Below are positions 7,614 through 31,313 of a stretch of DNA of 32,000 nt, in pieces. This stretch comes from Microcystis aeruginosa NIES-843 (lineage in GTDB: Bacteria; Cyanobacteriota; Cyanobacteriia; Cyanobacteriales; Microcystaceae). Under the pieces are notes generated by a model, which was not told the DNA's origin, ran no database searches, and saw only the letters and a program-made list of their open reading frames with translations. A program made the position numbers and the translations under genes. Every line of letters begins with the position of its first letter. Within the stretch, counting starts at the first letter, position 1. The stretch is taken from the NCBI RefSeq assembly GCF_000010625.1, contig NC_010296.1, positions 3,960,001 to 3,992,000 of the forward strand, in the 5' to 3' direction.

Positions 7614-7878
7614 GGGAAAGATATCTTTTCTGATGGGTTCTGTGGTTAAAATGTATTCTAAGATACGGTAACGCTGGTGGGTGAGTGGAACGAACCACTC
7701 CAGACACAGAGAACACAAAGATTGATCGCTCTTATATCAATTAAACTTATCACACAAAGAATAAGAGAGCCTCTGATGGGACTGGCAGAGATAATATAAT
7801 AGGACAAAAAGTAGATAATCTCAATTCCTAACACTCCCATAGTTCCCCCAGTTCAAAAAATTAGGAGGCTTGCAAAAA

Positions 7879-8535: not shown

Positions 8536-8548
8536 AGGACAGTTAATT

Positions 8549-9316
8549 ATGTGGAGAACATTATGTCAGTCGGTGGTCGGTAGTTTTCATATCCAAGCGG
8601 GATTACCCTGTCAAGATTACGGTGCTTATCAAGTATTGGGTCAGGATGTTTTGATTGGAGCCGTGGCCGATGGGGCCGGTAGTGCCAAACATTCGGATTT
8701 GGGTGCGAAAATAACAGTTAAAGCAGCGCTGCAATTTTTAGAGGAAAATCTCAAAAAAACAGCATTAGCTGCCACTGGAACTGAAGCCGAATTAGAGGAA
8801 ATATTCCGGCGACTGTTGGCTTATGTTCAGCAAATTCTCCAAGAAAAAGCTGAAAAAGAACAGTTATATATTAATGATCTGGCGACAACTTTACTGGTTG
8901 TTTTGGTTACTTCAAAACGGTTAGCAGCGATGCAGATAGGAGATGGTTTTATTGTGTTCAAACCTCTGGGAGGAAATTATCAGTTATTGTTCCAGCCTGA
9001 CAAGGGGGAATACATCAATGAAACCACTTTTGTTACTTCTAGTAATGCTTTGGAGGATATGCAAATAAAAGTTTTAACCGAGCCAGTTGCCTTTATTTGT
9101 GTGGCGACGGATGGAGTGGAAAAGGTATCGATCGATTATAAAAATTGGCAGCCTTTTCCGCCTTTTTTTCAGCCATTAGAGGAATATTTGCAACAGACAG
9201 AAACGCCATTGCAAGAAGACCTCAAAGAATTTTTAATGCGGGAGGATTTAAATAAGTTAACAACCGATGATAAAACCTTACTCCTAGCTTTTTGTTCAGA
9301 AACCGGGTTTGTTTGA
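8549..9316 (+). CDS. PP2C-family (PP2C_2-like) protein phosphatase
   Basis: 255-aa ORF. HIQAGLPCQDYG...GAVADGAGSAKHSDLGA...TLLVVLV...MQIGDG...VATDGV matches the bacterial PP2C_2 pattern. It starts 13 nt after the vWA gene. Confidence 0.75.
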   Translation: MWRTLCQSVVGSFHIQAGLPCQDYGAYQVLGQDVLIGAVADGAGSAKHSDLGAKITVKAALQFLEENLKKTALAATGTEAELEEIFRRLLAYVQQILQEKAEKEQLYINDLATTLLVVLVTSKRLAAMQIGDGFIVFKPLGGNYQLLFQPDKGEYINETTFVTSSNALEDMQIKVLTEPVAFICVATDGVEKVSIDYKNWQPFPPFFQPLEEYLQQTETPLQEDLKEFLMREDLNKLTTDDKTLLLAFCSETGFV

Positions 9317-9378: not shown

Positions 9379-9672
9379 ATGAAAATTGACGAATTACTCA
9401 AAAACAAACGAGAAAAAATTATTGCTATTGCGGCTAAACACGGCGCAAATAACGTGCGAATCTTTGGTTCTGTCGCACGGGGAGAAGCTGACGAAAAAAG
9501 CGATATTGATTTATTAATTGATTATTGTAGCGAACGTCGGAGTCCCTGGTTTCCCTTGCCGTTAATTCGAGAACTTGAAGCCTTGTTAGGCTGTAAAGTT
9601 GATATTGTTACCGAACAGGGACTTAAAGATAGAATCAGAGAGCGGGTACTAAAAGAAGCAATACCACTATGA
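9379..9672 (+). CDS. mntA: MNT-type nucleotidyltransferase antitoxin (type VII TA)
   Basis: 97-aa ORF with the minimal nucleotidyltransferase motif IFGSVARGEADEKSDIDLLI. It overlaps the downstream HepT gene by 4 nt. Confidence 0.85.
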   Translation: MKIDELLKNKREKIIAIAAKHGANNVRIFGSVARGEADEKSDIDLLIDYCSERRSPWFPLPLIRELEALLGCKVDIVTEQGLKDRIRERVLKEAIPL

Positions 9673-10004
9673 GAGATGATAGCGAACGCTTGCGGGATAT
9701 TTTAGAAGCAATTGAGCGTTTAGAAAAGTATGCTCGACAGGGAAAAACCCTGTTTGAACAACAAGAATTAATTCAAACTTGGATTGTCTATCATTTACAA
9801 ATTATTGGTGAAGCAGCTAGAGCAACTTCTCAAGAATTTAAAGCAAGATATCCCGAAGTTCCTTGGCGAGATGCCAGCGATCTAAGAAACTTAACTATTC
9901 ATGAATATTTTCGTATCAATCTAGAGATTATTTGGGATATTGTTGAAAATGACATTCCTCCTCTAAAACAACAAATCGAAGCTATTTTACAGGAATTGAT
10001 TTGA
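9669..10004 (+). CDS. hepT: HepT/DUF86 HEPN-domain toxin
   Basis: 111-aa ORF with the HEPN Rx4H motif in LRNLTIHEYF, paired with the MNT gene. Confidence 0.85.
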   Translation: MRDDSERLRDILEAIERLEKYARQGKTLFEQQELIQTWIVYHLQIIGEAARATSQEFKARYPEVPWRDASDLRNLTIHEYFRINLEIIWDIVENDIPPLKQQIEAILQELI

Positions 10005-10791: not shown

Positions 10792-12039
10792 GGGAGCATC
10801 TCACCTTTGCAATGAGCATAAATACTTAGTGGAAAAATAGGCTTTTCGAGGGTAATTCTTGTTTTAATTCTCCATGTACGCAGTCTTTAAAAGCCTCTAT
10901 TTCGTTCCAAGACACGATTAAGAGTGGCTTTTAGGCTAAGTATAATTACTTATCGCGTAAGTGAGATGCTCCCATGTCTCTATGAGCAATCCCCAATTAA
11001 TAAATTTAATAACTTGGGAGAGATAGAGGAGACAGTCAGAGATTTAATGATTCAGTATGTCAACCCAGAAATCGGTATTTTTTTGTCAAAACAAGCACAG
11101 GAGAAACAGCTGGTCGGACAAGAAAAGTGAAAAGTATTTTGGGGGAATTACCAATTACAGAAAAACAAGCGAAAAAATTAGAAATAAAGTCTCGGACTCA
11201 GATGAGTCCAATGTTAGAGAAGAACTGTTTGCTATTAAGTGGCGATGAATCCTACGAGAAATCGGCGCAGAAAATCAAATCATTGACAGGGATTGCTGTT
11301 TCTCACAGTACCCAACAACGCCTCGTACATCGCTATGCTTTTGAAGAATTACCGTCTAACCCAGAAGTGGAAGTGGAAGAAATGAGCCTAGATGGCGGTA
11401 AGGTACGACTAAGAACTGCCAAGGGAAAAGCCTTAATTTGGCGTGATTATAAAGCAGTGAGTTTTCATCAACTGGGGGTAGCGGCTTTTTTTCAAGATAA
11501 CTCAGCTTTATTAGATTTGGTTAATTCTCAAGTTTTGGCCAAGCCTTTAATTTGTTTAGGAGATGGACATGATGGTATCTGGAATTTATTTCGTGAGATA
11601 GGAGAGAAACAGGAAAGAATTGAAATATTGGATTGGTATCATTTAATCGAAAACCTCTATAAAGTTGGCGGGTCATTCCAGCGAATTGAGGAGGTAAAAT
11701 GTTTTCTCTGGAAGGGGGAAGTGGAGGCGGCTATCTCTTGTTGTGAAGGATGGTCAGAGCCGCAAGTTGAGAATTTTATTACTTATTTAAACAAGCATAA
11801 ACATCGAATTGTCAATTATGGTTATTTGCAGGCAGAGGGGATTTCCATTGGCTCTGGCTCCGTCGAATCAAAAATTAAACAAATTGCTCATCGTCTTAAA
11901 ATTACTGGTGCAAGTTGGGAATCTGGTAATGTACCGCAAGTCCTTCGTCATCGCTGTGCTTATCTAAATGGTTGCCTTTTTTAACTTTTTTATTGAGATC
12001 ATTAAGCATTTCTACTTATTGCAAAGGTGAGATGCTCCC
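10792..12039 (+). mobile_element. About 1.25-kb insertion sequence (ISKra4/ISNCY-like by recollection)
   Basis: Left end GGGAGCATCTCACCTTTGCAAT is inverted at the right end as ATTGCAAAGGTGAGATGCTCCC (12018-12039). It encloses transposase ORFs. Its first 182 bp (10792-10973) appear identical by eye to the solo MITE at 26929-27110. Confidence 0.75.
10966..11984 (+). CDS. DDE transposase encoded in two overlapping frames (-1 shift at 11127-11130)
   Basis: The N-terminal part (ATG 10966 to stop 11130) and the C-terminal 285-aa part (11127-11984; LGDGHDGIWNLF...ILDWYHLIENLYK) overlap at GTGA after GAAAAG. This is either a programmed frameshift or a decayed gene. Family assignment is tentative. 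Confidence 0.6.
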
Positions 12040-14312
12040 GTCAGGAAGCGAAAATCTACCACAATCCCCATAATGAAAGGGTTGATAAATTACAGTTAAT
12101 GGTGAGAAATCGTCCCAGTGATCCTAATGCTAATCTTAACCATATTTCCTTCGCTTGGCCCTATTCTATCTTAGAAGATAAACAGGGAAAAGTCGTTGGG
12201 TTTTTAATGCCAGAAGTGGTGGGTTCAGAAACATTATTAAAGCTTTGTACGCCCATAATGAGAAGAAAATACAAGTTAGAAACTAATTGGTATTTTCTTC
12301 ATGTAGTAGCGCGGAATATAGCCGCTATTATCCAAGCAATTCACCTTAAAGGTTATGTTTTGGGAGACATCAAGCTAGAAAATATCTTAGTGAATAATCG
12401 GGCGTTGCCTACAATTATTGATACAGATTCATTTCAAGTATCAGATCCGGATAGTAGTAAAATATATCGGTGTTTAGTTGGTTCAGAAGGATTTACGCCG
12501 GCGGAATTAATCGGAGTGAATATAGCAGATGTAGATCAAACAGAAGTGCATGATCGCTTTCGATTAGGAGTTGTTATTTATTATCTACTATTTAGCGGGC
12601 CGCCGTTTCGGGGATTGTGGCAAGGAGGAGGGGATTCCTTGGAACAGTCGGAACTAATTCGACGGGGACTCTGGCCTTTTTCTGGGGATAAATTGCTTGT
12701 ACCTAGTAATACAACAATCCCATTAAATATTTTACATCCCGACTTACACGCCTTATTTTTGCGCTGTTTCAATGAGGGACATAAATTCCCCCACAGACGA
12801 CCGACGGCTAAGGAATGGCGTGGTACTTTGGAAGCTGCACTAAAAGAGGTTGTACGCTGTGGCAAAATTGATAATCATTACTACAGTCGCAGTTACGGAA
12901 AGTGTTATTGGTGTGAGCGATCTAGTAATTTAAATCTTGATATTTTTCCGGGTAAAAGTATCGCTACTGTGACACCTACACCGTCACCTAAAGTAGCGCT
13001 AACTCCACTGACAAACTTTACCGAAAACCTACCCAAGGGAATAACACTGGAGATGGTGAACTTACCAGCAGGTCAATTTCTCATGGGATCTCCTGACAGT
13101 GATACCGATGCTAGGGATTTTGAAAAGCCTCAACACCAAGTTCAAGTCAACAGTTTTGCGATCGGTAAATATCCAGTGACTCAGGCACAATATCAAGCGG
13201 TAATGGGAACCAATCCCTCTCATTTTTCAAATAATCCCCAAAATCCGGTAGAAAAGGTTAGTTGGGATGATGCTCAAGCTTTTTGTCAGAAATTGAGTCA
13301 AATAACCGGGAAAACCTATCGCCTACCGACGGAAGCGGAATGGGAGTATGCTTGTCGTGCGGGGACTACTACTCGCTTTTATTTCGGTGATGATGCTAAT
13401 CAGTTAGGAGATTACGCTTGGTATTACGGACATTCTCAGCAGACAACTCATCCTGTGGGACAGAAAAGTCCCAATGCTTGGGGACTGTATGATATGAGTG
13501 GCAATCTTTGGGAGTGGTGCGAGGACAATTGGCACGATAACTATATCGGAGCGCCAAAAGATGGCAGTGCTTGGCTGACAAATGATAATGATTATCAAAT
13601 AGTGCGGGGCGGTTCTTGGTACGACTATCCGTCTTTCTGCCGTTCCGCTTTCCGCGGCTACTACTTCCGCCGCGACTTCATCAACGACGTCGGTTTTCGG
13701 GTGGTGTGCGTCCCCAATGTGACATCTACACAGTTACCTATCGCTACTGTGACATCTACACCGTTACCTAAAGTAGCGCCTCCAGCGCCCTCTTCGCCAC
13801 CACCTCCCCCAGCAAAGCTAACTCTATTTAGCGAAAACCTACCCAAGGGAATAACACTGGAAATGGTGAGCTTACCAGCAGGTCAATTTCTCATGGGATC
13901 TTCTGACAGTGATCCCGATGCTTACCAGAACGAAAAGCCTCCACACCAAGTTCAAGTAAACAGTTTTGCGATTGGCAAATATCCAGTTACTCAGGCACAA
14001 TATCAAGCGGTAATGGGAACCAATCCCTCTCGGTTTAAAAATTGGTTTAAAAATAATCCCCAAAATCCAGTAGAAAATGTTAGCTGGAATGATGCTCAAG
14101 CCTTTTGTCAGAAATTGAGTCAAATAACAGGAAAAACCTATCGTCTCCCCACAGAAGCGGAATGGGAATATGCCTGTCGTGCGGGGACAACTACTCGCTA
14201 TTATTTTGGTGATGATGCTAATCAGTTAGGAGATTATGCTTGGTATTACGGAAATTCTCAAGATACAACTCATCCTGTGGGCCAGAAAAAGCCCAATGCT
14301 TGGGGACTCTAT
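12027..14312 (+). pseudogene. Ser/Thr protein kinase-FGE-FGE fusion, 5'-truncated and IS-interrupted (upstream fragment)
   Basis: Kinase catalytic-loop and DFG-like motifs are present (HLKGYVLGDIKLENILV, IIDTDSF), but the Gly-loop and the start of the N-lobe are missing. The apparent GTG start lies inside the IS inverted repeat. Two FGE-sulfatase modules follow (RLPTEAEWEYACRAG twice). The reading frame is broken at 14312 by an IS701-type element. Confidence 0.8.
13605..13709 (+). other. DGR variable-region-like cassette F1 (internal FGE domain)
   Basis: Adenine-free invariant blocks CGGGGCGGTTCTTGG / TGCCGTTCCGCT / GGTTTTCGGGTGGTGTGC are interspersed with NNC/NNT codons. It aligns with the other three cassettes. 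Confidence 0.6.
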
Positions 14313-15675
14313 TGGGACTTAAACAAATTTCAAGCCCAAACAAAGCCTAAACTGGCTTTGTAAGCGGCAAACACATCCCGATTCTCGGTCAGCCACTCAA
14401 AGAAACGGAAAGACATCGCTGTCCGAAAAGCTTCCAAGGCTTCCACAAAAGTGTTTAAAGGTCGATTCGCCCACTGCCTTTGCAATCCCCCAGTTAACTG
14501 ATGCCACAGGATAAATGTATAGGCACAAAACACCAGGATAAAATGACGAAGTAAGCTTCGTTTATCCCTGACTTGATATTCCCTTAACCCTAACCATCCT
14601 TTGGCTTCTCGGTAGAATACTTCCACCCAATTTCTTTCGGTGTAAGTCCTCACTATCCACGAAGCTGTTACTGTATCTGCCTCAACTACATTGGTGATGA
14701 AATAGTCCACCTCTGTGGCTTTTTCCATTGAACTTGCATTCATGACGATCGCCAAGTTCCTTTCTCCTTCTAGTTGAGATATTTTCGCTCTGAATACCGC
14801 TACCCAAACCGTTTTTTCTTTATCTAGATTTAGGGTGATTTTCTCCCAATCCTTTTCTGATAGGCTTTTTGCTAGTTGCTCAAGCTGGATTGTTTCTTCC
14901 ACACCCCCTTCTTTTTCAATAATTACTTTTCGATTTTTTGCCAATCCTCCTAAGTATTTTAGCTTTCTTTCTTCCAGGGCTTTGAGAAAATTTGTGTTGT
15001 TGCCATAACCAGCATCTATTAAGACGATTTTCGGTCGATAGCCTCTGGTTAAGCTCCGGTCAATTAAATCTATCGCTATCTCTGGTTTCTTCTTAAATTC
15101 TTTGTCTTCTTTCCCCTCGGCTAAGGAACTAGCCGGTTGATAAATTTCAATGTCTAGGGGGACACTTTTTTTGCCGTCGTAGAGATGAGTAGTGACGGCG
15201 ACTATTCCGTTGTCTGTCTTGCCAATTTCTCCCAGGTACTGCCTGCCAACTCCGGCGGTCAGATTGCCACTTTTTCGATGTCCTGAGTCATCGACAATCA
15301 GGGAAAATCCTCGGGGGATTTGCGTCTGGCGGCATTGGTTCATCACTTGCAACCGACATTCATTCACCTGACGGTCTGACCAGGGAGATTCGGTCAAAAA
15401 GTGATGTAATCGGTTATAAACTACTCCGACGGCATTATTGGCCATTTGAGTGAGGTTTTTCCTCTCACTTTCCCCTAATAATCCTCCTAAATATTGTCTG
15501 AAGCCGTTTTTTTGCGCTTCGTTTTTGAAGCAATTGTCAAACCGCCGACACCATCGGTCAAAGCATGGGGGCATCGCGGCTGGGGTTGTCTCTTTCATCG
15601 CTGATCTTTCAACGTAAAGTGCTTACTCTTTAACGATTATACTCGATTTGATCTTTATTTGGCGTTTAAGTCCCA
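14313..15675 (-). mobile_element. IS701-family insertion sequence (1363 bp)
   Basis: Terminal inverted repeats TGGGACTTAAAC (14313-14324) and GTTTAAGTCCCA (15664-15675). Flanked by a direct CTAT duplication (14309-14312 and 15676-15679). Confidence 0.85.
14330..15598 (-). CDS. IS701-family DDE transposase
   Basis: 422-aa ORF filling the element. The N-terminal pattern (FDRWCRRFDNCF...QYLGGLL...ERKNLTQMA...LHHFLTESPW) is recalled from IS701/IS4-related transposases. Confidence 0.8.
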   Translation of the reverse strand: MKETTPAAMPPCFDRWCRRFDNCFKNEAQKNGFRQYLGGLLGESERKNLTQMANNAVGVVYNRLHHFLTESPWSDRQVNECRLQVMNQCRQTQIPRGFSLIVDDSGHRKSGNLTAGVGRQYLGEIGKTDNGIVAVTTHLYDGKKSVPLDIEIYQPASSLAEGKEDKEFKKKPEIAIDLIDRSLTRGYRPKIVLIDAGYGNNTNFLKALEERKLKYLGGLAKNRKVIIEKEGGVEETIQLEQLAKSLSEKDWEKITLNLDKEKTVWVAVFRAKISQLEGERNLAIVMNASSMEKATEVDYFITNVVEADTVTASWIVRTYTERNWVEVFYREAKGWLGLREYQVRDKRSLLRHFILVFCAYTFILWHQLTGGLQRQWANRPLNTFVEALEAFRTAMSFRFFEWLTENRDVFAAYKASLGFVWA

Positions 15676-15679
15676 CTAT

Positions 15680-15916
15680 GACATGAGTGGCAATGTTTGG
15701 GAGTGGTGCGAAGACAATTGGCACGATAACTATATCGGAGCGCCAAAGGATGGCAGTGCTTGGCTGACAAATGATAATGATTGTCAAATAATGCGGGGCG
15801 GTTCTTGGTCCTTCAATCCATCTTACTGCCGTTCCGCTTACCGCGACGAATTCTACCGCGACGGCTACGACGACATCGGTTTTCGGGTGGTGTGCGGTGT
15901 CGGGAGGACTCTGTAA
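15680..15916 (+). pseudogene. Kinase-FGE-FGE fusion, downstream fragment after the IS701 insertion
   Basis: Removing 14313-15679 joins ...NAWGLY to [18 protein letters not shown]... in frame. The fragment ends [12 protein letters not shown]-stop. Confidence 0.85.
15794..15895 (+). other. DGR variable-region-like cassette F2 (C-terminal FGE domain of the kinase)
   Basis: Same adenine-free scaffold as F1, F3 and F4, but one codon shorter. Followed by GGTGTCGGGAGGACTCTGTAA. Confidence 0.6.
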
Positions 15917-16834: not shown

Positions 16835-18068
16835 TAAGCTAAAACGCACTTAAACCACCTAAAATAGAAATAGTAATTTTAGAAAAATCCTACTTATGCC
16901 AGCAAAAGATTTCCTAGACTTAGAAGAAAAGAAAAACTTACAAAAAGCTCTTAAAGAAGAAGAAAGAGCAGAGGTTAGGGAAAGAATTTTAATGTTTCTC
17001 TTGCTAAACGACGGAAAAACTCAACGAGAAATAGCTGACTTTATTGGCTGTTCACTCAAAACGGTCGCCCCTTGGTGTGTTCACGGTGATCCTAACAATT
17101 TAGAAAGTCTAGAAGATGGGAGAAAAAATGGAAATCATAAAAAAGCCACAGAGGAATATATTAATTTACTATTAAAAATAGTTGATGAAGACCCGAAGGA
17201 ATTTGGATATGAATTCGGGAGATGGACAGCGGCAAGATTAGCAGAGCATCTAGAAAAGGAAACAAGAATTAAACTGAGTGGCTCGCAAGTGAGAAGAATA
17301 TTGAGAAGAAAAAAGTATGTGTATATCTGGGCGAAATATAGTCTAGAAGATAAGCAAGACAAGAAATTAAGAAAAGCATTTAAAGAAAAATTAGATGAAT
17401 ATTTAAGGTTGGCTAAAGAAAAGCCAGAGTCAATCCAGGTATGGTTTTGGGACGGGGCTTTCAAGGTGGCGACGCAGGTTCGCCACACAGCCCCTCATGA
17501 GTGTGGATTTAGTTTGAGAGTAATAAGAAGGAGAGCTTGGACAAAAAAAGGAAAGCGAAAAAAAGTGAATGGACAAAGAAAAAGAGGAAGGGTGAATGTG
17601 ATGGGAGCCTTAAGATATAATGACAAAAAACGAGTCTGTTTTATGAGCAAAAAAGGAAATTCAGAAACTTTCCATGAACAATTAAAGAAACTTCATGAAG
17701 AGATTCGTCAAGAATGGATAAACTTGGGAAATCTGCCCGAAGATTTTCGAGAAAAAAGACCGAAAATTATCATCATATTAGACAATGCTAGTTATCACAA
17801 AAAGAAAGATGTTATTGAGCAGGTGGAAAAAGAGTTGCCCAATATTAGGCTAGAGTTTTTACCAGCTTATAGTCCAGATTACAACCTAATAGAATTAGTG
17901 TGGCATTCCGCTAAAGAGTACATAGCTAATCGAGAATTTGAAAATAAAGAAGAACTGGAAAAAGTAGTCAATCAGCTTTTAAATGAAGGGGGATTGATTA
18001 TTAAATGGAGTAGAAAACTTAAAAATAAGGGTAATGCTGTCAATGTAACTTAAATGCGTAAAAGCTTA
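16835..18068 (+). mobile_element. IS630-family insertion sequence (boundaries approximate)
   Basis: Imperfect inverted ends TAAGCTAAAACGCACTTAAA and TTAAATGCGTAAAAGCTTA, about 15 of 20 matched, both at TA dinucleotides. They enclose the transposase ORF. Confidence 0.7.
16896..18053 (+). CDS. IS630-family (Tc1/mariner-like) DDE transposase carrying a 15-aa in-frame insertion
   Basis: 385-aa ORF with an HTH N-terminus and motifs ILDNASYHKK and LPAYSPDYNLIELVW. WFWD-[GAFKVATQVRHTAPH]-ECGFSL interrupts the usual DE.GF motif. Confidence 0.85.
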   Translation: MPAKDFLDLEEKKNLQKALKEEERAEVRERILMFLLLNDGKTQREIADFIGCSLKTVAPWCVHGDPNNLESLEDGRKNGNHKKATEEYINLLLKIVDEDPKEFGYEFGRWTAARLAEHLEKETRIKLSGSQVRRILRRKKYVYIWAKYSLEDKQDKKLRKAFKEKLDEYLRLAKEKPESIQVWFWDGAFKVATQVRHTAPHECGFSLRVIRRRAWTKKGKRKKVNGQRKRGRVNVMGALRYNDKKRVCFMSKKGNSETFHEQLKKLHEEIRQEWINLGNLPEDFREKRPKIIIILDNASYHKKKDVIEQVEKELPNIRLEFLPAYSPDYNLIELVWHSAKEYIANREFENKEELEKVVNQLLNEGGLIIKWSRKLKNKGNAVNVT

Positions 18069-20751: not shown

Positions 20752-21549
20752 TTACAAAGTCCTCCCAGCACCGCACACCACCCGAAAACCGCAGGTGTTG
20801 AGGCTGACGGGGCGGAGGTCGTAGCTGCGGCAAGCGGAACGGCAGCCATCTGGATCGCTGTACCAAGAACCGCCCCGCAGAGCTTTATCTGCCTGATTTT
20901 GCTGTTTTTTGCTCTTTTTTATCTCCTCATAATTTTCGCGCCAATCATCTTGACACCACTCCCAGACATTTCCGGGCATATCATATAAACCAAAGTCGTT
21001 GGCGTAGAATTGCCCAACAGGGGTGGTTTTTTGGAGATTGCCATTATAGTTGGCTAAATCTGGGGTAAGAATTTCCCCAAAGTGATAGGGGGGGTAGGTT
21101 TCTCCTTTGTGGAGATTTAAGGGTTTGGTTTGCGCTCGACAAGCGTACTCCCACTCAGCTTCCGTTGGGAGCCTATATTTTCTTTTACTTAATTTAGAGA
21201 GCCTTTGGCAAAATTCGACGGCATCTAACCAAGATACATTTTCAACGGGGTTTGTGCTGCCTTTAAACTCCGATGGCTCTGGTTTTAAATCTTGCTCTAC
21301 TTTTAAATCTTCTCTTTGGGCAATATATAACCATTGAGCTTGGGTAATGGGATAAATACCCATCAAGAAGTTTTTCAGGGTGACGTTGTGTTGCGGCTTT
21401 TCACTTGTATTACCACTTTCTTGTTCTGAAGAACCCATTGTAAAGGTTCCCGATGGTATTTTGACTAATTCTATTTCTAGGTCATCGGTGAGTTTTTCTC
21501 TATAGATTAAAAGACGTTTTTGGGTCTTTTGGATGATTATTGTAGGCAT
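20752..21549 (-). CDS. Stand-alone FGE-sulfatase (SUMF1/C-type-lectin fold) domain protein
   Basis: 265-aa ORF with VKIPSGTFTMGS, RLPTEAEWEYACRA, GLYDMPGNVWEWCQD, GGSWYS and GFRVVCGAGRTL-stop. Confidence 0.85.
   Translation of the reverse strand: MPTIIIQKTQKRLLIYREKLTDDLEIELVKIPSGTFTMGSSEQESGNTSEKPQHNVTLKNFLMGIYPITQAQWLYIAQREDLKVEQDLKPEPSEFKGSTNPVENVSWLDAVEFCQRLSKLSKRKYRLPTEAEWEYACRAQTKPLNLHKGETYPPYHFGEILTPDLANYNGNLQKTTPVGQFYANDFGLYDMPGNVWEWCQDDWRENYEEIKKSKKQQNQADKALRGGSWYSDPDGCRSACRSYDLRPVSLNTCGFRVVCGAGRTL
20773..20877 (-). other. DGR variable-region-like cassette F3
   Basis: Same adenine-free scaffold with NNC codons. Followed by GGTGCTGGGAGGACTTTGTAA. Confidence 0.6.
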
Positions 21550-21753: not shown

Positions 21754-22239
21754 CTATCCTTCACCAGCTAATTTTAACACAGAAGTACGAGTAGTGGCAT
21801 CTAAGCGAAACTTCAGCAATTCTAGTTGATTAAGAATTGGCTCAATACGGTGTAGATAACCATTTTGTTTAGCCTTTAATAATATTCCCATTGTACCAGT
21901 GAGTTTTATTCCTAATAAATTTGCATATCGTCTCGCCAAGCCATCATCAAGTAAAGCGAGAAAATCGGTAATTTCTATTGCTAAAGCTAATACTTCTTTT
22001 TCTCCTTTTCCTAAATCAGTGACAAGGGGTAAAAGAGAAACTGATTTTGCTTGTTGAATAATTATCCAACTTAAGGAGGTTATATCAGGTAAAGAGATTC
22101 CAGAAGCTTTTCCAACGGCTAACTCTTGAGCTACTGAAAAAGGAATAATTATCTGTCCGTAAAAGTTCGGTAGTAAGTCAAGTAAGTTAGTCTGATAGAG
22201 GTATTGAATCGGTGATGTATCGGCAATGACGTTAGGCAT
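21754..22239 (-). CDS. DUF3368-type PIN-like putative toxin
   Basis: 161-aa ORF. IADTSPIQYL...GKGEKEVLALA...LLDDGLARRYA matches the PIN-like pattern recalled for DUF3368. It overlaps the upstream antitoxin-like gene by 8 nt. Confidence 0.65.
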   Translation of the reverse strand: MPNVIADTSPIQYLYQTNLLDLLPNFYGQIIIPFSVAQELAVGKASGISLPDITSLSWIIIQQAKSVSLLPLVTDLGKGEKEVLALAIEITDFLALLDDGLARRYANLLGIKLTGTMGILLKAKQNGYLHRIEPILNQLELLKFRLDATTRTSVLKLAGEG

Positions 22240-22483
22240 TAGCCAGATCCTCGATTAATTCTGCTTCCTTGAGTCGGAAGGTATCAACTCCATAGTCTGC
22301 AAGTTTAGAGAGAAAAACAACTCGCGGAATACCTGCTAAGTTGGCAGCAGTGCCAGAGGAAAGTTTTCCCAATTCATAAAGTTTAATGGCAGCAAGAAGA
22401 GAGATTTCCTGTGCTAGTTGTTCTGGAGTGAGATGTAAAGCGAGAGCGGTTTCATCGGGTAGGGAAAGAGTGATTTGGTACAT
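22232..22483 (-). CDS. UPF0175-family putative antitoxin
   Basis: 83-aa ORF. AAIKLYELGKLSSGTAANLAGIPRVVFLSKLADYGV is typical of UPF0175 partners of DUF3368 proteins. Confidence 0.65.
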   Translation of the reverse strand: MYQITLSLPDETALALHLTPEQLAQEISLLAAIKLYELGKLSSGTAANLAGIPRVVFLSKLADYGVDTFRLKEAELIEDLANA

Positions 22484-22491
22484 GATGAATA

Positions 22492-22718
22492 CTAGGATTA
22501 ATTGATTGTAGGGTTGATTCTAGGGTTGATAGGGTTGATTGTAGGGTTGATAGGTTTGATTCTAGGTTTGATTGTAGGGTTGATTCTAGGTTTGATTGTA
22601 GGGTTGATTCTAGGTTTGATTGTAGGGTTGATTCTAGGTTTGATTGTAGGGTTGATAGGTTTGATTGTAGGGTTGATTCTAGGTTTGATTGTAGGGTTGA
22701 TTCATGAATCAACCCTAC
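22492..22718. repeat. Tandem array of 17 units of 12 or 9 nt, ending in a 28-nt perfect palindrome
   Basis: Alternating GATTGTAGGGTT and GATTCTAGGTTT units with three 9-nt GATAGG(G/T)TT variants run from 22504 to 22698. The array ends in GTAGGGTTGATTCATGAATCAACCCTAC (22691-22718). Confidence 0.9.
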
Positions 22719-22854: not shown

Positions 22855-25740
22855 TTACAAAGTCCTCCCAGCACCGCACACCACCCGAAAACCGTCGATG
22901 TCGATGTCGTCGCGGCGGAGGCTGATGTTGCGGTAAGCGGAACGGCAGAGATCCGGATTGCTGTACCAAGAACCGCCCCGCCGAGCTTTATATGCCTGAT
23001 TTTGCTGTTTTTTGCTCTTTTTTTGCCAAGGACTACCATCCCTAGGTGCGCCTTGATAATTATTCCAGAAGTCATCCTGACACGACTCCCAGACATTTCC
23101 GTGCATATCATACAAACCAAAACCATTGGGGGGAAATTGCCCCACGGGGGTGGTTTCCTCGCGATATTCTCCTGCTGGTTCCCTAGCAAAGCGTTGCGTA
23201 CCATTGTAGTTAGCTAAATTTGAGGTGAGGGTTGCTCCGAAGTGGAAGGGAGTGGTGGTTCCAGCACGACAAGCATACTCCCATTCCGCCTCACTGGGTA
23301 GCCGATACTGTTTCTTGGTCATTTTAGAGAGCCTTTGGCAAAATTCTACGGCATCTAACCAAGATACATTTTCAACGGGGTTTGTGCTGCCTTTAAACCG
23401 CGATGGCTCTGGGTTTAAATCTCGCTCTACTTTTAAATCTTCCCTTTGGGCAATATATAACCATTGAGCTTGGGTAATCGGAGTTTGACTTAGGTAAAAC
23501 GGGGCGATTTTTACTAAATGTCTGGGGGATTCTGGTTGGAACCAATCCCTATTGTATTTTTTCACTAGCCGCGCTATTTCCTCCGCTTCGGTTCCCATCC
23601 AAAACTCCCCCGAAGGAATATAGAGCATTTTTAAGCTGGGGGGATTTTCTTTAAAGTAGAAGGCTCTCACGGGTTCTTTAGCGGTAATTTGTCCCGTCTC
23701 ATCCACAAAAACGGTTTCAGACTTGAACAGGGTTAGGTTAAATTTCTCGGTGATGATTTCTTCTTCTGTGTTATCCAAGACTTCCCTAAACTGGACTGGG
23801 ATTGTCTCGGCGGTTATTTCTTCGCTTGCCAAAATTTTAAGCTGCTCAGGGGTTAAACGAAGGCGCTGATACAGTTCCCCATCTTCTACGCTGAAATCCT
23901 TAAGTCTATCCTTGAGCAGTTGAAACAATATTTCCTCTCCTCCCGTAAGCTCTTTTACCTTAGCTATGGTTACGGTTTTATATTTCCTCAGCCACTTTTC
24001 CTCAACCGGTGGGGGTGGAGGTGAGTCAACCATAGATTGCAGCTTTTGGCTAATTTCTTGGTACTTTGCTTCCCCTAGCTTTTGGAAAACCTTAGCAGAT
24101 ACCTTGGCAAAGGCGCGAACTAGATTAGCTGCTTCTTTGCCGAGGAGAACTTGGGGATTGGTAAGAATAAGACCAAAAAAGGTGGTGGTACTCAGGTTGA
24201 GTTTTTGGGCGATGTATTCCGAGAGGACAAAAATTACCTCTAAGGCGCGGCTATTCCCTAGTTCAGTGAGCAGAAGCTCTCTGTCCTCATCATCCAATTC
24301 AAAATCTAGGCTGTTGGGGGGAGTATGAAAGTTAAATTTACCTCCTTTGTCCCACTTCACTGGTTCCCCTCCTAGATAGACTTTGAGAAAACCGCTAAGG
24401 ATGACTTCTGCTATGTTTAGGGGGTTAGAGGCGCTTAAAAGTTTGCTTTGGATAAGACGGATGATGGGAAGATTTACCGGGGCTGCGGCTAATTTTTTCA
24501 GTAACTCCCAAGCTAGAGGTGAGGCGGTACTGGCGAATAGTTCTAGAGCTTGCTTCCTAGACATCTCCGGAGAAATAGTTGCGGGTATTTCTCTGTTTTG
24601 GGGAGATTTTTCTAGTAGTACCCCCGCACAGGTGGCGTTGCTGTCACCACTGAGAACAAGCGCCCAAGCTTTTAAGGATGAAGGGGTTAGGGAGATGGTG
24701 GGTAGGGGAAAGTAGGTTTTTTGGATTGTTTCTCTGAGAATATGTTGATTTTCCTCTTCCTTCTCAATTTGTAGCAGCAGGGGGATAGAGGTAAATCTCC
24801 AGTTTTGTGAAGGTTTCCGGGGGGTTTGGTTGACTAGGGAGACGAACCAACCTCGACTAAGGGCGGTTCTTTCCCACATTGCTTCCGGGAAGGGAGAAAG
24901 CAGGGTGACGATTTGGTGTTTTCCCCAGTCCTGAAGAGCTTGGTTATAGCGTCCTTGATACCAGTCTGGGGAAGTACAATCACTGTAGAAGAGGATAAGT
25001 CTTTCGCCGCGAGGATGGATGAGATCTTTTGGGTGAATTGAGCAAGTATCGTTAGAGTAGGTACGGATGGCTAAATTTTGCCTGTCTTCGTCCCATCCTA
25101 TGCGGTAGAGTTTGACATCCCGAAAGGCCCCGATTTGTTCTAGCCAATCGCGGATTTCCCCGGCCATTTCTTTCCAAAAGACCATGGAGGCCCATTCTTC
25201 AATCAGTAAAACTACCTCTAGGGAACGGACTTTTTTGGCTTGGTAAACGGGTATTAGGGCTAAACTGCCATCTTTCTTGCCGATGCTATACTCGGCCGAT
25301 TTCTGTACGGTGCTGTTTAGGTTTATTTGTCTTTGGGTGGCTGAGTCTATCTTTTGGATGAGGGGACGCACTGCCCGCCCTAATTTTAGGGTTTCTCGCC
25401 AGAATTTGGCACTGGGGAGGCTAATGGGTAGGGTATCTGCGCCTATCTTCTCCGGCTGTTTTTGTGCTTCTGTCTCGCGTATTAAGGGAACTTCATCGGA
25501 TGGGGCCGCTGGCTCTTGGGTTTCGTTTTTACTCTCCTGGGGGGGGTTTTTAGCGGGAGGGGTTTCTTCCTTTTCTTCCCTAGGCTCTGGAGGGGGTTGG
25601 GGTTTTCCTTCCTCTTCTTGGGTGAGAACATACCACCATAAACTATCAGCTATCTGGTAACTGTCTAGGTCCCATCCCCTGCCCTTGACAAAGGTGATAA
25701 ATTTATCAATCAGTTCTGGTGTGGGAAGGGTTTGGGTCAT
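22855..25740 (-). CDS. SAV_2336-N-like / vWA-like / FGE-sulfatase multidomain protein (vWA partner of the MoxR ATPase)
   Basis: 961-aa ORF. The N-terminus has YQIADSLWWYVL (ADALWLA-like), then a Pro/Glu-rich linker and a vWA-like region with a degenerate MIDAS (VVLLIEEWASM...ILFYSDCTSPDW). The C-terminal FGE domain has RLPSEAEWEYACRAG and GFRVVCGAGRTL. The ATG overlaps the AAA gene stop (ATGA, 25737-25740). Confidence 0.8.
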   Translation of the reverse strand: MTQTLPTPELIDKFITFVKGRGWDLDSYQIADSLWWYVLTQEEEGKPQPPPEPREEKEETPPAKNPPQESKNETQEPAAPSDEVPLIRETEAQKQPEKIGADTLPISLPSAKFWRETLKLGRAVRPLIQKIDSATQRQINLNSTVQKSAEYSIGKKDGSLALIPVYQAKKVRSLEVVLLIEEWASMVFWKEMAGEIRDWLEQIGAFRDVKLYRIGWDEDRQNLAIRTYSNDTCSIHPKDLIHPRGERLILFYSDCTSPDWYQGRYNQALQDWGKHQIVTLLSPFPEAMWERTALSRGWFVSLVNQTPRKPSQNWRFTSIPLLLQIEKEEENQHILRETIQKTYFPLPTISLTPSSLKAWALVLSGDSNATCAGVLLEKSPQNREIPATISPEMSRKQALELFASTASPLAWELLKKLAAAPVNLPIIRLIQSKLLSASNPLNIAEVILSGFLKVYLGGEPVKWDKGGKFNFHTPPNSLDFELDDEDRELLLTELGNSRALEVIFVLSEYIAQKLNLSTTTFFGLILTNPQVLLGKEAANLVRAFAKVSAKVFQKLGEAKYQEISQKLQSMVDSPPPPPVEEKWLRKYKTVTIAKVKELTGGEEILFQLLKDRLKDFSVEDGELYQRLRLTPEQLKILASEEITAETIPVQFREVLDNTEEEIITEKFNLTLFKSETVFVDETGQITAKEPVRAFYFKENPPSLKMLYIPSGEFWMGTEAEEIARLVKKYNRDWFQPESPRHLVKIAPFYLSQTPITQAQWLYIAQREDLKVERDLNPEPSRFKGSTNPVENVSWLDAVEFCQRLSKMTKKQYRLPSEAEWEYACRAGTTTPFHFGATLTSNLANYNGTQRFAREPAGEYREETTPVGQFPPNGFGLYDMHGNVWESCQDDFWNNYQGAPRDGSPWQKKSKKQQNQAYKARRGGSWYSNPDLCRSAYRNISLRRDDIDIDGFRVVCGAGRTL
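22876..22980 (-). other. DGR variable-region-like cassette F4
   Basis: Same adenine-free scaffold with NNC codons. Followed by GGTGCTGGGAGGACTTTGTAA. Confidence 0.6.
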
Positions 25741-26696
25741 GTATTGCCTGTGTCGGTGAGATAGGTAAATAGTAGGTCGGTAAGGGACTTTAATTCTGCA
25801 CCCGTGGGTTTATTTTCGCCCATGCTCATAAAGACGGCGTTTAAAAGCTGGTCCGTTGCTAGTTCCCCTTTTTCTCGTTTTTTAACATATTCTGCGATCG
25901 CGTCTTCTATTTTTTTACTTTCTGGACTGGCCTCTTTATAATCAAAATGGCTTTTTACTATCTTTTTTAGTTCCTCTGGGGTGGGGTCGGGAATTTCTAA
26001 GAGCAGACATCTACGTTTAAAGGGTAGGGGAAAATCCCTCTCGCCGTTGCTCGTCATAATCACTATGGGGAACTGTTGGCAGCTTACCTTACCTTGGGGG
26101 ATGGATTCCCATTCACCGTCATGGGTTTGTACTGGTATTGGTTGGTTTTCGGTATCTTTAGCGAGTCGGGAAAGTTCGGTGATTTCAAATCTTCCCTCTT
26201 CAAAAAGGTTTAAGAGGTCGTTGGGTAAGTCGATGTCACTTTTATCTATCTCATCGATAAGCAGTACCCGGGGATAATTTCTCGGACAGAGGGCTGTCCC
26301 CAAGGGACCCAAGCGGATATACTGCCCTATGTCTTTTTTTTCTTCTAATTGGTAATCTTGCAAACGTGCGATCGCGTCGTAGTAGTATAATCCCTCTTGT
26401 AGGGTGGTGCGGGTATTAATTGGCCAGACTAATACTTCTTTTAAGTCTAATTCGTAGGCGATTGCGTAGGCTAGGGAGGTTTTCCCTGTACCCGGTTTCC
26501 CTGTGACTAAAATAGGCCGGCGTAGGTGAATGGCTGCGTTTACGGTTTCGATGGTTTTAGGGTTAACTATGAGTTGTTTTCCCCGCTCCTCGGATTTGTT
26601 GGTGGCGAAGCTTCGCCAAGGTGGGATTTCTGGCCAAGTAATCTTATCCCTTGAGCGTTTTTGATGATTGCCTTGAAAGATTTTCCATGAACTCAT
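25737..26696 (-). CDS. MoxR-like (AAA_5-type) AAA+ ATPase
   Basis: 319-aa ORF with Walker A LVTGKPGTGKTSLA and Walker B RVLLIDEIDKSDIDLPNDLLNLFEEG. It begins 6 nt after the upstream gene and overlaps the downstream gene. Confidence 0.85.
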   Translation of the reverse strand: MSSWKIFQGNHQKRSRDKITWPEIPPWRSFATNKSEERGKQLIVNPKTIETVNAAIHLRRPILVTGKPGTGKTSLAYAIAYELDLKEVLVWPINTRTTLQEGLYYYDAIARLQDYQLEEKKDIGQYIRLGPLGTALCPRNYPRVLLIDEIDKSDIDLPNDLLNLFEEGRFEITELSRLAKDTENQPIPVQTHDGEWESIPQGKVSCQQFPIVIMTSNGERDFPLPFKRRCLLLEIPDPTPEELKKIVKSHFDYKEASPESKKIEDAIAEYVKKREKGELATDQLLNAVFMSMGENKPTGAELKSLTDLLFTYLTDTGNT

Positions 26697-26702
26697 AGTT
26701 AG

Positions 26703-28399
26703 TTAACCTAGGTGCTGAGATGTTAAGTAGTGGAAGGGGGGCATCCGATTAGGGTCTTCTAAAAAGCATAATAGATGATGTCCTAGATGTTCTGGTTCAT
26801 CTTCTAAATTATCTGGTGATTGTCGCCTCACCTCTTGAACTCTTGTGGACAATTGATTGATTTGAATACCCTGTAAGAGTGTATTAATTTCTGTTCTGTG
26901 AATTGCTTCCTGAGCATGACAGCGCGACGGGAGCATCTCACTTACGCGATAAGTAATTATACTTAGCCTAAAAGCCACTCTTAATCGTGTCTTGGAACGA
27001 AATAGAGGCTTTTAAAGACTGCGTACATGGAGAATTAAAACAAGAATTACCCTCGAAAAGCCTATTTTTCCACTAAGTATTTATGCTCATTGCAAAGGTG
27101 AGATGCTCCCCAGCGCGACCCAACGGCTAAAGGTATGCCATATTTTAAGCTTCTTTTAAAGAATTGCTCTAAATCCTCTTGAGTTGAAGCGCAAAGATTG
27201 CTCCATAGAGTTGTTTCTTGGCACAAATAGGACTCGCTGTTATTAACTGTTTGTGTATCTATAGAATTTGTCGTTAATCTCTCCCATCTACTTTTCCAAT
27301 TTTTATAAACTGGTTGATTCCGATATCTATTCTCCAATCTCATAAGAGAGCGAACATTAACAAAATATACTCTCTTAAGTTGAGTTAGGCTATCAAAGTA
27401 ATTGTATTCCCAAGATTCAAAGTTAGTATATAGTAGCTTACCATCGGTGAAAAATTCAATATTTAAGTTTGCACCTCCTCGCTCATGACAATCTTCAATA
27501 ATTTTTGTTAAAATGTTCGTTATATCTTTTTGAGTATAAACATCTTTGCTAACGCTACTATCTACAGGAAGAGGTATATAATTATTTCCTTGACTTTGAG
27601 ATGTATTTAACTGTAGAAAACACGCAGCAAATTTATATTCAGGGGAAGTATTTGCTTGACTTTTACTCTCCTCTATTTTGATAATTAGATAGTTGTTAAT
27701 ATTTTCTCGATTGTTAGGTTTTGGATCAATTTCTGTTATCTCTGCTGTCCAAGCATTGTAATCTGTGTCAGTAATATTTAATAGTTTCTTTAACTCCTGT
27801 ATTGTTTGTTCAATGTATGAGCGATTGTAGCTATTAATTCTGCTATCTTGAGTAAGTCTAAAAAGTATTCTTAATAAATCTTTATCATCTGGAAGATTTA
27901 TGATTTTATCGATGATTTCTTCAAAATTAGCATTGTCATTATCTAGCAAGTACGACTTTATGATCAGATTCAGTTCTGCTTGTTGTTGTCCAGACAATTT
28001 ATTTTTAAGTTCTGTAAATATATCAATTTTTGTCTTGCTTTTAACAAAACTATTTTCTACAGAGATACCCTTGTTATCGATAGCATTCCAATGCTCAATT
28101 AATGTAATAAAATTGGTCTTTTGAACTTTTATAGGCGTTTTCATAGCTTCTGTGAGAGCTTTAGAAATCAAGGGAAATAATTTTTTATTTGCTTCTTTCC
28201 TAAGATTTTCTGAATTTAAGTAATTTTTCTCTGCTATCTCATCATAAGTTAAATCTTGACGAAATCCATTTACTAAGATTTTTTGTATATCAGATAATCC
28301 CTTATTATCTACTTTTATAACTAACTGCATTACAATGCCCAAAAAATCTGATTCATTCAGATCACTTGGTTTTTTAGACTTAGATTTTCTATCTCCCAT
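26703..28399 (-). pseudogene. HTH + VMAP-C-like (vWA-MoxR-associated) protein gene disrupted by a MITE
   Basis: ORFs 27062-28399 and 26703-26978 join in frame when 26929-27111 and one 8-bp duplication are removed, giving about 501 aa. The N-terminus has a LuxR/sigma-r4-like HTH (LSDIQKILVNGFRQDLTYDEIAEK). The C-terminal half has NIEFFTDGKLLYTNFESWE...VYFVNVRSLMRLENRY...WKSRWERL, recalled as the VMAP-C pattern. Confidence 0.7.
26929..27110 (-). mobile_element. 182-bp MITE identical to the left arm of the IS at 10792
   Basis: 13-bp terminal inverted repeats (GGGAGCATCTCAC and GTGAGATGCTCCC). Flanked by direct AGCGCGAC copies (26921-26928 and 27112-27119). Its reverse complement matches 10792-10973 with no mismatch found by eye. 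Confidence 0.85.
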
Positions 28400-30062: not shown

Positions 30063-31313
30063 CTAATTCTGTACGCAAATATTGCATCTAGAATTAGCTT
30101 TGTACGCTTTGACCCGTACTGGGTTAACTACGAACCTCTCTATCGGATTCCCGCTAAAGGCGGCCTCTCCGACTACCTTTCTTCCAATATTTAAGGAACC
30201 ATTAATATCTGCTCCATAGAAATAACCCGACGAGCTTCTGAATAGTCCTCTTTTAATTCTCTTGCCTAAATAGCTTTTTTGCTTTTGAATAGACTCTAAG
30301 TCCAAGAAACTACATTTAGAGGTATAGCTTTCATTAGTTGTTTTGACCTCTATTCCTACTAAATTTGCTTTATAGGTAAGTTGTTCGATCAACCTTGAAT
30401 GAGGAATATTTACGAATGACTGGTTATTTCTATCTCCAATATTAATGTTTTGTTTCCAGCCTTGATTATGACCAATAACTAAAAGGTTAATTTGATGAGC
30501 TAGTAATTTATCAATAATATATTTACTAGCGGTGTGGAGGTAATAATCCACCTGGCAATTACGCTTTAAAGTTAAACCTTGTATTCTTTTACTGGTCTTC
30601 TGTAGACTGGGTAATTCCGATTTGAGTTTAGCTAGTGTCTTGTTGTACTTTTGATTGCAGGATTTTAAGGCTTTTCCACATACTAAAGTTGGCTGAAATT
30701 CGGGAATATTAGAGGTAACAGCAGCTAGGTTATTTAAGCCTAAATCGATAAAAGCATATCTTTCTCCCTCTTGACTTGATGAGGATGGTTGTTCATAGAC
30801 AATCTCTAAACAATAAGCACCCAATTTAGGAATAATCCTGACCTCTAAGACTTTCTTTAAATTAGTTTTAAATTCTCAATTAGTCCCTGATAGCTTGATT
30901 AAACCTTGCTTCAACGCTTTTTGAGAAATGGCTTGATAGTTATAAGTTAAAACGTTTCTACCTTTTTCCTTGTCTTTGTATCTTGGCAACTTAGGCTCTC
31001 CTGTAAATTTATCTGGCGATTTTTTGGATTGTTCTTTCGCTTTTTGGTAGGATTTAAAGGTTTTTTCTACTTGCTTTAATACTAACTGACTTACTTTGGC
31101 GGGTAAGGCTTGATAATCTGGACTCATTTTTAAGGCATGATGTAACTCAGTCATTGTTAAAAATGGTTGATGTGAAAAGAAAACTTGACGGTTTAAATAA
31201 ACAGCACAATTATACAGATTCTTCGATAAAAATCCTAATTTATCAATTACTGAATAATTTTTGTGATTAAATTTAATTAGATGTTTTTGAACTAATTTCA
31301 TCATTCTCCTCAA
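30063..31313 (-). pseudogene. tnpB: TnpB (IS200/IS605-family OrfB, RNA-guided nuclease family) with one in-frame TGA
   Basis: ORFs 30876-31313 and 30063-30824 are in the same frame, separated by the TGA at 30876-30878 (...IKLSGTN-stop-EFKTNLKKVLEVRIIPKLGAYCLEIVYEQ...). FIDLGLNNLAAV carries the RuvC-I Asp. About 416 codons in total. Confidence 0.8.

Follow-up and report, generated by a model that had tools for sequence, protein, structure and literature searches.

Three tightly packed genes on the minus strand of Microcystis aeruginosa NIES-843, at positions 22855-28399 of the 32,000-nucleotide stretch analysed here (NC_010296.1, positions 3,960,001 to 3,992,000; hereafter the window, whose numbering is used throughout), very probably form a chromosomal VMAP ternary system as defined by Kaur et al. 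2020 (eLife; PMC7159879). These genes would encode a VMAP protein composed of a helix-turn-helix (HTH) segment, VMAP-M9 and VMAP-C, an AAA+ ATPase of the MoxR type, and a protein with a von Willebrand factor A (vWA) domain. The lectin-fold end of the vWA protein would be the target of a remote diversity-generating retroelement (DGR), and a short paralog consisting of a formylglycine-generating enzyme (FGE)-sulfatase domain would be a second target. An earlier note, made from the letters of this DNA, had matched the locus to the computationally predicted vWA-MoxR-VMAP ternary systems, and this assignment is supported by the domains of the three proteins, by a structural model and by synteny.

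The genes follow one another in the order VMAP, MoxR, vWA-FGE (Table 1). A gap of 6 nt at 26697-26702 separates the VMAP stop codon (26703-26705) from the MoxR start at 26696, and the MoxR stop codon overlaps the ATG of the vWA-FGE gene as ATGA at 25737-25740, an arrangement that had been pointed out before and that is confirmed by the coordinates of the open reading frames (ORFs). Matches to promoter and terminator consensus sequences in the region did not exceed shuffle expectation; it is gene spacing that argues for an operon. The order of the triad and its chromosomal site, between a desaturase-like gene and cysK, are kept in strain TAIHU98, in M. protocystis FBCC-A270 and in strain S464, and the triad of FBCC-A270 contains an intact VMAP of 502 aa. 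Additionally, the order VMAP-C, MoxR, vWA-FGE is retained in two cyanobacterial contigs (L012 and L013), in which the vWA-FGE protein is only 47-49% identical. The survey of neighbourhoods named in the earlier note as a check on co-conservation has thus found the triad to be co-conserved and intact in other Microcystis, and conserved also in these two distant contigs.

The VMAP gene is split in the window by a miniature inverted-repeat transposable element (MITE). When the element is removed together with one copy of its 9-bp target-site duplication (GTCGCGCTG, at 26920-26928 and 27111-27119), an open frame of 501 aa is obtained, as had been reported in the earlier note, and the restored junction, PLAVGSRCHAQEAIH, is identical to that of intact orthologs of 497-504 aa, which are found in many Microcystis strains. 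Pfam searches with this MITE-free reconstruction revealed VMAP-M9 (4.9e-88, residues 91-225, 292.6 bits against a cut-off of 27) and VMAP-C (1.8e-16, residues 282-486, 61.2 bits against a cut-off of 27), so that the VMAP-C-type domain recognised earlier by its residue pattern is now placed by profile. The N-terminal region had been called an HTH of the LuxR/sigma-r4 type. Precomputed annotations of VMAP orthologs list PF26355 (HTH_VMAP-M9), and residues 16-86 are helical and confidently predicted in the structural model. The assignment to LuxR/sigma-r4 is not supported, as no significant profile or fold match to that family was obtained. Compared with the local Pfam library, the first 105 aa gave no HTH match even at E<=10, a profile of the N-terminal 95 aa found no HTH protein among the PDB sequences, and a Foldseek search with the whole VMAP model gave nothing significant. 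A second search for VMAP homologs, based on a profile, recovered nothing outside Microcystis and two metagenomic clusters.

The second gene encodes an ATPase in which the Walker A (GKPGTGKT, residues 66-73, 26478-26501) and Walker B (LLIDEID, residues 145-151, 26244-26264) motifs quoted in the earlier note are both present. The protein matches the Pfam family AAA_5 (4.8e-9, 36.8 bits against a cut-off of 22), and its best sequence matches in the PDB are midasin. By these sequence comparisons the ATPase is assigned to the MoxR/midasin clade. PADLOC returned generic AAA matches only for this protein.

Profile searches with the 961-aa product of the third gene detected SAV_2336_NTERM at residues 27-514 (NCBIfam; 3.2e-94, 316 bits against a cut-off of 200) and FGE-sulfatase at residues 704-954 (Pfam; 3e-45). 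The motifs ADSLWW and LLIEEWASM lie at residues 31-36 and 178-186, and the SAV_2336-type N-terminus with ADSLWW and the C-terminal FGE domain that had been proposed are confirmed. A two-helix N-terminal domain (8-44) and a disordered Pro/Glu linker (46-112) are followed by a vWA-like Rossmannoid fold with accessory domains (approximately 117-573), a further linker and the FGE/C-type-lectin fold (704-954). Residues 1-573 were modelled with AlphaFold2 from 26 diverse sequences, with a mean pLDDT of 80.5 and a pTM of 0.72. Comparison of this model with the PDB by Foldseek gave the vWA domain of NorD in NorQ/NorD complexes as the best match (E 3.2e-4 and 7.4e-4, probability 1.00), followed by the vWA domains of CMG2, TRAP, integrin I and Ku80; it is only in the vWA core that the structures resemble NorD (target-normalised TM 0.29-0.33). 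The vWA fold suggested earlier for this protein is therefore supported by a SAV_2336_NTERM match above its cut-off and by a model whose closest solved counterpart, NorD, operates together with a MoxR ATPase (NorQ).

Two details of this protein required correction. The metal ion-dependent adhesion site (MIDAS) had been described as degenerate (EEWAS), and it has Glu at the strand-1 metal position and Trp in place of Ser at the third position. Among 26 sampled family members, Asp occupies the first position in 15 and Glu in 11, S185 is near-invariant, and D254, the strand-4 Asp, is invariant. It is thus the Trp alone that is unusual in this sample, and the Glu at position 1 is common, so that the term 'degenerate' is only partly apt. 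Likewise, the middle region of about 400 aa, described as helical, does contain helical parts, but in the AlphaFold2 model it combines alpha/beta with helical elements. When residues 1-573 were searched exhaustively, they recovered 3056 representative homologs (E<=1e-3) with total lengths from about 500 to 2475 aa, and these very different lengths indicate one constant module that carries variable C-termini. Orthologs of the 961-aa protein are named 'formylglycine-generating enzyme family protein' in the source databases. By analogy, an FGE domain that bears a DGR variable region (VR) and is fused to a vWA module is taken to be the non-enzymatic use of the lectin fold described in PMC7159879.

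In the survey of Kaur et al. 2020, the FGE-sulfatase ('FGS') domain occurs almost exclusively in cyanobacterial VMAP ternary systems, where it is always C-terminal, and roughly 80% of VMAP systems in cyanobacteria and gammaproteobacteria are associated with a DGR, usually with the vWA protein fused to FGS and with the template repeat (TR) either nearby or at another place in the genome (PMC7159879). The window contains four FGE cassettes, and in each the last ~110 nt consist of invariant blocks broken by variable first and second codon positions. From this pattern of VR variation we wrote a predicted TR, TCTTGGTACAACAATCCAAATAACTGCCGTTC, and searched for it in one genome per prokaryotic species; exact copies were found in three Microcystis genomes and nowhere else in that set. 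One of the three is M. aeruginosa S464, where the predicted TR belongs to a complete DGR made up of a cis target, an accessory protein (bAvd), a reverse transcriptase (RT) and this TR (Table 1), the RT matching RVT_1 at 5.2e-21 and bAvd being recognised at 6.9e-20. S464 carries both this DGR and the triad.

The mismatches between TR and VR have the adenine specificity of DGR mutagenesis. With the TR of Microcystis sp. M015S2 (L011; a 110-nt core with 31 adenines), a reference taken from a genome other than that of the window, all 14 core mismatches of the vWA-FGE VR lie at TR adenines (chance approximately 2e-8), as do 20 of 21 in the VR of the first FGE domain of a protein-kinase gene and 18 of 19 in that of the short FGE gene. 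Against the TR of its own genome, the cis target of S464 has 23 adenine mismatches. The TR differs by a few codons among Microcystis genomes (L009, L010 and L011), and a one-codon difference in its length mirrors length differences among the VRs. After the conserved run, GGGAGGAC is common to all VRs, and the TRs carry GGGATTAC or something else at this place, which is consistent with the distinction between an initiation of mutagenic homing (IMH) site and its IMH* counterpart. Within 130 nt 3' of the VR no stable hairpin was predicted, the value of -1.5 kcal/mol being weaker than in shuffles. Each of 13 orthologs (13/13) has a unique VR peptide in the fixed scaffold RGGSW..P..CRSA.R....RR......GFRVVC. 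The exact recovery of the predicted TR, the position of the mismatches and the uniqueness of the VR in each ortholog identify the C-terminal VR as a genuine DGR target, very probably rewritten from a DGR elsewhere in the genome, and the adenine-specific mismatches turn the 'DGR-like diversified' end of the earlier note into a confirmed one.

Table 1. Positions of the triad genes, their parts and related elements (window numbering unless another sequence is named)
Feature	Positions	Strand	Description
VMAP gene	26703..28399	-	one split gene made up of ORFs 27062..28399 (445 aa) and 26703..26978 (91 aa); reconstructs to 501 aa
MoxR-type AAA+ ATPase gene	25737..26696	-	319 aa
vWA-FGE gene	22855..25740	-	961 aa; FGE cassette
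vWA-like fold	24691..25368	-	approximately residues 125-350; MIDAS-like residues E181-E-W-A-S185 and D254
VR of DGR target	22866..22981	-	116 nt inside the FGE domain; IMH-like 3' end GGTGCTGGGAGGAC
Short FGE-only gene	20752..21549	-	265 aa, own VR; FGE-sulfatase 2.1e-53; FGE cassette
Protein-kinase gene	12027-14363 and 15659-15916		two tandem FGE-sulfatase domains (two FGE cassettes), the second ending at 15659-15916
MITE in VMAP gene	26929..27110	.	182 bp, inside the VMAP-C coding region; perfect 13-bp terminal inverted repeats GGGAGCATCTCAC
MITE, second copy	10792-10973		182/182 identical to the first
Complete DGR of M. aeruginosa S464	L010, SFBL01000156.1, 1800-6982		CHAT-NB-ARC-FGE cis target (1017 aa), bAvd (117 aa), RT (352 aa), TR right after the RT stop codon

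In TAIHU98, FBCC-A270 and S464, and likewise in the distant contig L013, a short FGE-only gene comes after the triad; its product probably represents a fourth component of the locus and a second DGR target. The pairing of a short, lectin-only target with a long one has been noted by Doré et al. 2024 (PMC10907252). Two elements lie between the vWA-FGE and short FGE genes of the window. One is a toxin-antitoxin-like pair, UPF0175 (83 aa) and a DUF3368 PIN-like protein (161 aa), at 21754-22483; the other, between the vWA-FGE gene and the antitoxin-like gene, is a tandem array at 22502-22703 with a 12/24-nt unit (TTGATTGTAGGG / TTGATTCTAGGT) in approximately 17.5 copies, a region that differs strongly between strains. 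S464 lacks both, and there the short FGE gene comes directly after the vWA-FGE gene.

The protein-kinase gene with two tandem FGE-sulfatase domains is another DGR-type target in the window. An IS4-family (DDE_5) transposase at 14330-15598 interrupts its second FGE domain, and the displaced 3' end carries a VR that can be mistaken for a TR. This segment, at 15659-15916, was considered as a TR and rejected, since it is the end of the kinase gene's second FGE domain cut off by the insertion sequence (IS) element.

The mechanism that we propose for the triad takes its polarity, by analogy, from the putative antigen sensors of Doré et al. 2024 (PNAS; PMC10907252); we put it forward tentatively and with slightly less than even confidence. 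The RT of the remote DGR would copy the TR with adenine-specific errors and overwrite the 116-nt VR, giving each lineage a different ligand-binding surface; the rewriting itself is visible in the pattern of the mismatches. The cytoplasmic vWA-lectin protein could then serve as the sensor of an invader-derived or other ligand. As its fold and gene coupling suggest, the vWA domain may dock on the MoxR hexamer like NorD on NorQ, and ATP hydrolysis would remodel the complex with VMAP-C. This remodelling would free or activate the N-terminal HTH of the VMAP protein, leading to a DNA-binding (transcriptional) output. In other VMAPs the N-terminal position is taken by a peptidase, a cyclase or an adaptor (PMC7159879). 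The explanation as a whole, comprising the identity of the locus, this mechanism and the state of the system in the window strain, appears to us about evenly poised between right and wrong.

Several observations weigh against this account. With regard to the DGR, scans of the 32-kb window for repeats and motifs revealed no adenine-rich fifth copy that could be the TR, and no RT or Avd was found in the window, where Pfam scans of 20 larger ORFs outside the triad gave transposases and housekeeping genes. In S464, where a TR of the same genome is available, the vWA-FGE VR has 12 adenine mismatches and also about 5 non-adenine core mismatches, and the current TR may therefore not have written every remote VR. 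With regard to the proteins, the Trp at MIDAS position 3, as read from the sequence, may alter metal-mediated peptide capture. The HTH is backed by the name of PF26355 and by the confident helical model of residues 16-86, and by these only, and confidence in the VMAP-C half of the structural model is low, with most pLDDT values under 50, so that the model tells nothing about the VMAP-C fold. The existence of two HTH alleles, described below, is odd for an output domain that is expected to recognise a fixed operator. PADLOC has no model for VMAP or vWA-FGE proteins. Finally, the sequence does not discriminate between a lectin that is the sensor and a lectin that is the effector, and none of the papers found describes an experimental test of any VMAP ternary system.

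The distribution of variation along the operon bears on this last choice. Codon-level comparison with two other Microcystis strains gave a dN/dS of 3.9-6.2 for the VR and of 1.39 for the FGE domain outside it; MoxR (0.44-0.53) and the vWA core (about 0.2) are under purifying selection. VMAP-M9, with a dN/dS of about 1.07, is like the VR not under such selection. The first 90 residues of VMAP (28130-28399) share 36% amino-acid identity with the corresponding segment of the contigs L014 and L015, and dS in this segment is saturated. Since the remainder of the operon is more than 90-95% identical between the compared Microcystis strains, the HTH segment behaves as a recombined cassette rather than as the product of gradual divergence. 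On this sequence evidence, there are two ancient alleles of the segment, swapped by recombination and not generated by point mutation or DGR activity. A DGR origin of the variability in the VMAP region was considered and rejected: the variation is allelic or recombinational, the HTH segment is saturated in dS, and no repeat or TR is present.

This pattern lends genuine weight to the model stated in PMC7159879, in which the roles are distributed differently. The variable VMAP-M9 would sense the invader, MoxR and vWA would set the threshold, and the hypervariable FGS/lectin would be an antibody-like, non-enzymatic neutralising effector; the HTH would then be an accessory sensor of DNA or invader DNA, or an autoregulator. 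VMAP-M9 is indeed a hot spot of variation between strains, with 71% amino-acid identity versus 93-96% for VMAP-C, and two deeply divergent HTH alleles are what one would expect if this part came into contact with the invader. We nevertheless consider this polarity unlikely to apply here, because the DGR-diversified lectin folds that have been characterised by experiment serve to recognise ligands (Mtd and TvpA, as is well established), because the VMAP protein lacks the peptidase that would release the effector and provide the second threshold of the scheme, and because nothing toxic- or enzymatic-looking is found in the locus.

If the lectin is the sensor, as in our preferred reading, the HTH-VMAP variant could be a programmable transcription switch. 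The DGR-rewritten lectin would set the ligand, MoxR would convert binding into VMAP remodelling, and the HTH, in one of its two interchangeable alleles, would turn on a regulon. We regard this as a rather improbable extension of the model. If true, this would be the first case of a VMAP system whose output is directly transcriptional, and it would exemplify, in nature, a hypermutable input specificity that is coupled to gene expression.

An HTH output, in place of a toxin, is also what might be expected if the triad had no part in defence. It would in this case be a regulatory signal-transduction module for environmental or cell-cell cues, for example in colony formation or stress, and DGR variation would let a population hedge its bets on receptor specificity. 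In the reading of Vallota-Eastman et al. 2020 (PMC7517822), cyanobacterial DGR targets, including those that contain vWA, are signal-transduction proteins. Furthermore, in all Microcystis examined the triad occupies a fixed chromosomal site between housekeeping genes with no obvious island, and it has no PADLOC match. However, the whole family combines a constant core with rapidly swapped modules, and its relatives are linked to caspase, TIR and trypsin effectors, as is typical of conflict systems (PMC7159879, PMC10907252), and a related MoxR-vWA module of the beta-propeller type has been linked experimentally to threat sensing in Actinobacteria (bioRxiv 10.64898/2026.09.08.750141). The neighbouring insertions (the toxin-antitoxin pair, the MITEs and the IS elements) also suggest that the region is a variable one. 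A role outside defence is, in our estimation, distinctly unlikely.

Whichever role the intact system has, it has probably been crippled in this strain, as judged from the sequence of the MITE-truncated VMAP-C and of a substitution in the FGE domain, a consequence that the earlier note, which did record the MITE, had not drawn. The two copies of the 182-bp element in the window are identical, and the insertion must accordingly be very recent. A solitary MITE end is present at 12000-12039, abutting the start of the kinase-FGE ORF. With these further copies, the element is recognised as a recently active MITE that is not part of the VMAP gene. The insertion cuts VMAP-C at residue 429, with loss of 72 C-terminal residues, among them the most conserved tail of the family, LEDPNRMPPFHYLTSQHLG. 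It is absent from M. protocystis FBCC-A270 and from S464, and present in TAIHU98 and in the metagenome contigs L002 and L003. The substitution, W886S (codon TCG, 23083-23085), lies in the GNVWEWC motif of the FGE domain, where all 12 other Microcystis orthologs have Trp. It is not a read error, because the change is also found in the contigs L002, L003 and L004, whose sequence over this position agrees 100% with the window.

These observations can be taken one step further, in a manner orthogonal to the models discussed above: the triad of this strain may be a decaying relic in which the split VMAP no longer works and the other genes persist only because the disruption is recent. The loss of the conserved VMAP-C tail, the perfect identity of the two MITE copies and the replacement of a Trp that is invariant in 12 orthologs all favour decay, and a DGR target nearby, the kinase gene with its two FGE domains, has likewise been split by an IS element. 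Yet the disrupted allele persists in nature, being found in TAIHU98 and in several metagenome and Logan assemblies (21 contigs in all), and MoxR and vWA-FGE are still open. The 91-aa downstream fragment of VMAP has its own GTG start, and a promoter-like site inside the MITE (26984-26956, minus strand; TTAAGA-17-TATAAT, 10/12) faces this fragment and MoxR, although such hits are not above chance. Moreover, the window strain and TAIHU98 have 0 differences over approximately 3.6 kb (MoxR and the vWA part) and about 40 in the last 250 nt. Since both carry the MITE, the VR has changed after its insertion, and it was thus still rewritten or exchanged; the change could have come about by retrohoming or by recombination, as the rest of the FGE domain also differs somewhat. 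On balance we think it rather likely that the system of the window strain is in decay.

The remainder of the window is rich in mobile elements and contains further genes of signalling type. At 7870-9316 a stand-alone vWA protein (221 aa) directly precedes a PP2C phosphatase (255 aa), with a HepT-like RNase gene nearby at 9669-10004. These genes, upstream of the kinase-FGE target, may constitute a separate signalling module. An IS630-family transposase (DDE_3 with HTH domains) is encoded at 16896-18053, and a TnpB/IS605 OrfB-like gene lies at 30063-30824.

Three aspects of the locus had been presented in the earlier note as more novel than they are. The combination of a vWA protein with a DGR-diversified lectin fold is explicit in Kaur et al. 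2020, whose survey set included Microcystis genomes (PMC7159879), a model of a programmable sensor that is linked to a MoxR switch comes from Doré et al. 2024 (PMC10907252), and the HTH-VMAP architecture has a Pfam family of its own, PF26355, the protein fitting VMAP-M9 and HTH_VMAP-M9 nearly perfectly. The system is already known as a computational prediction, and the window adds a further, damaged example of a published class. What is specific to it are the MITE disruption, W886S, the remoteness of the targets from the DGR, the two ancient HTH alleles and the conservation of a short FGE partner gene. VMAP ternary systems occur widely: for the N-terminal vWA module alone, the representative homologs number more than 3000. 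Microcystis forms blooms and is important ecologically, and its many natural alleles of the locus (intact and MITE-disrupted, of two HTH types, and with a VR particular to each strain) offer a convenient test bed in which to distinguish the lectin as sensor from the lectin as effector.

The triad can be compared with four groups of known systems. Like the canonical DGR targets, Mtd of Bordetella phage and TvpA of Treponema, the vWA-FGE protein has its VR at the C-terminus of an FGE-sulfatase/C-type-lectin fold with conserved scaffold residues, AAY codons in the TR account for adenine-specific substitutions, and bAvd, RT and TR are found together in the related Microcystis locus. Unlike these surface and tail-fibre proteins, the target here is cytoplasmic and is fused to a signalling or chaperone module; it is also remote from RT and TR, and no stable hairpin was predicted immediately 3' of its VR. 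NorQ/NorD belongs, with CbbQ/CbbO and RavA/ViaA, to the chaperone pairs of a MoxR AAA+ ATPase and a vWA protein. NorD bound to NorQ is the best structural match for the modelled vWA part, the ATPase of the triad is by sequence of the same MoxR/midasin clade, and its gene is likewise adjacent to that of the vWA protein. These pairs, however, insert cofactors into a metabolic enzyme or remodel it, whereas the locus described here has no enzyme client, possesses a third partner in VMAP, and carries on its vWA protein approximately 600 extra residues that include a hypervariable lectin domain.

The putative antigen sensors of multicellular bacteria of Doré et al. 2024 (PMC10907252) also combine a vWA and C-type-lectin DGR target with an adjacent MoxR gene and a third protein, are diversified in trans by a remote RT and TR, are shaped by MITEs and IS elements, and pair a short lectin-only target with a long one. 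In some of those loci an HTH gene takes the place of VMAP; here the HTH is part of a protein that has a genuine VMAP-M9 and VMAP-C. They were described from Thiohalocapsa and relatives, and the cyanobacterial clade 5E is mentioned only in summary. From the VMAP ternary systems of Kaur et al. 2020 (PMC7159879) the locus differs in the HTH at the VMAP N-terminus, which falls outside the three classes of the main text (peptidases, enzymes of nucleotide signals and EAD adaptors), in the Trp at MIDAS position 3, and in the disruption of the VMAP gene by a MITE. In the remaining respects it resembles them: all three core components are present in canonical order and tightly coupled, VMAP has the tripartite organisation of an N-terminal domain, VMAP-M and VMAP-C, and the vWA protein ends in a variable C-terminal FGS domain that is associated with a DGR.

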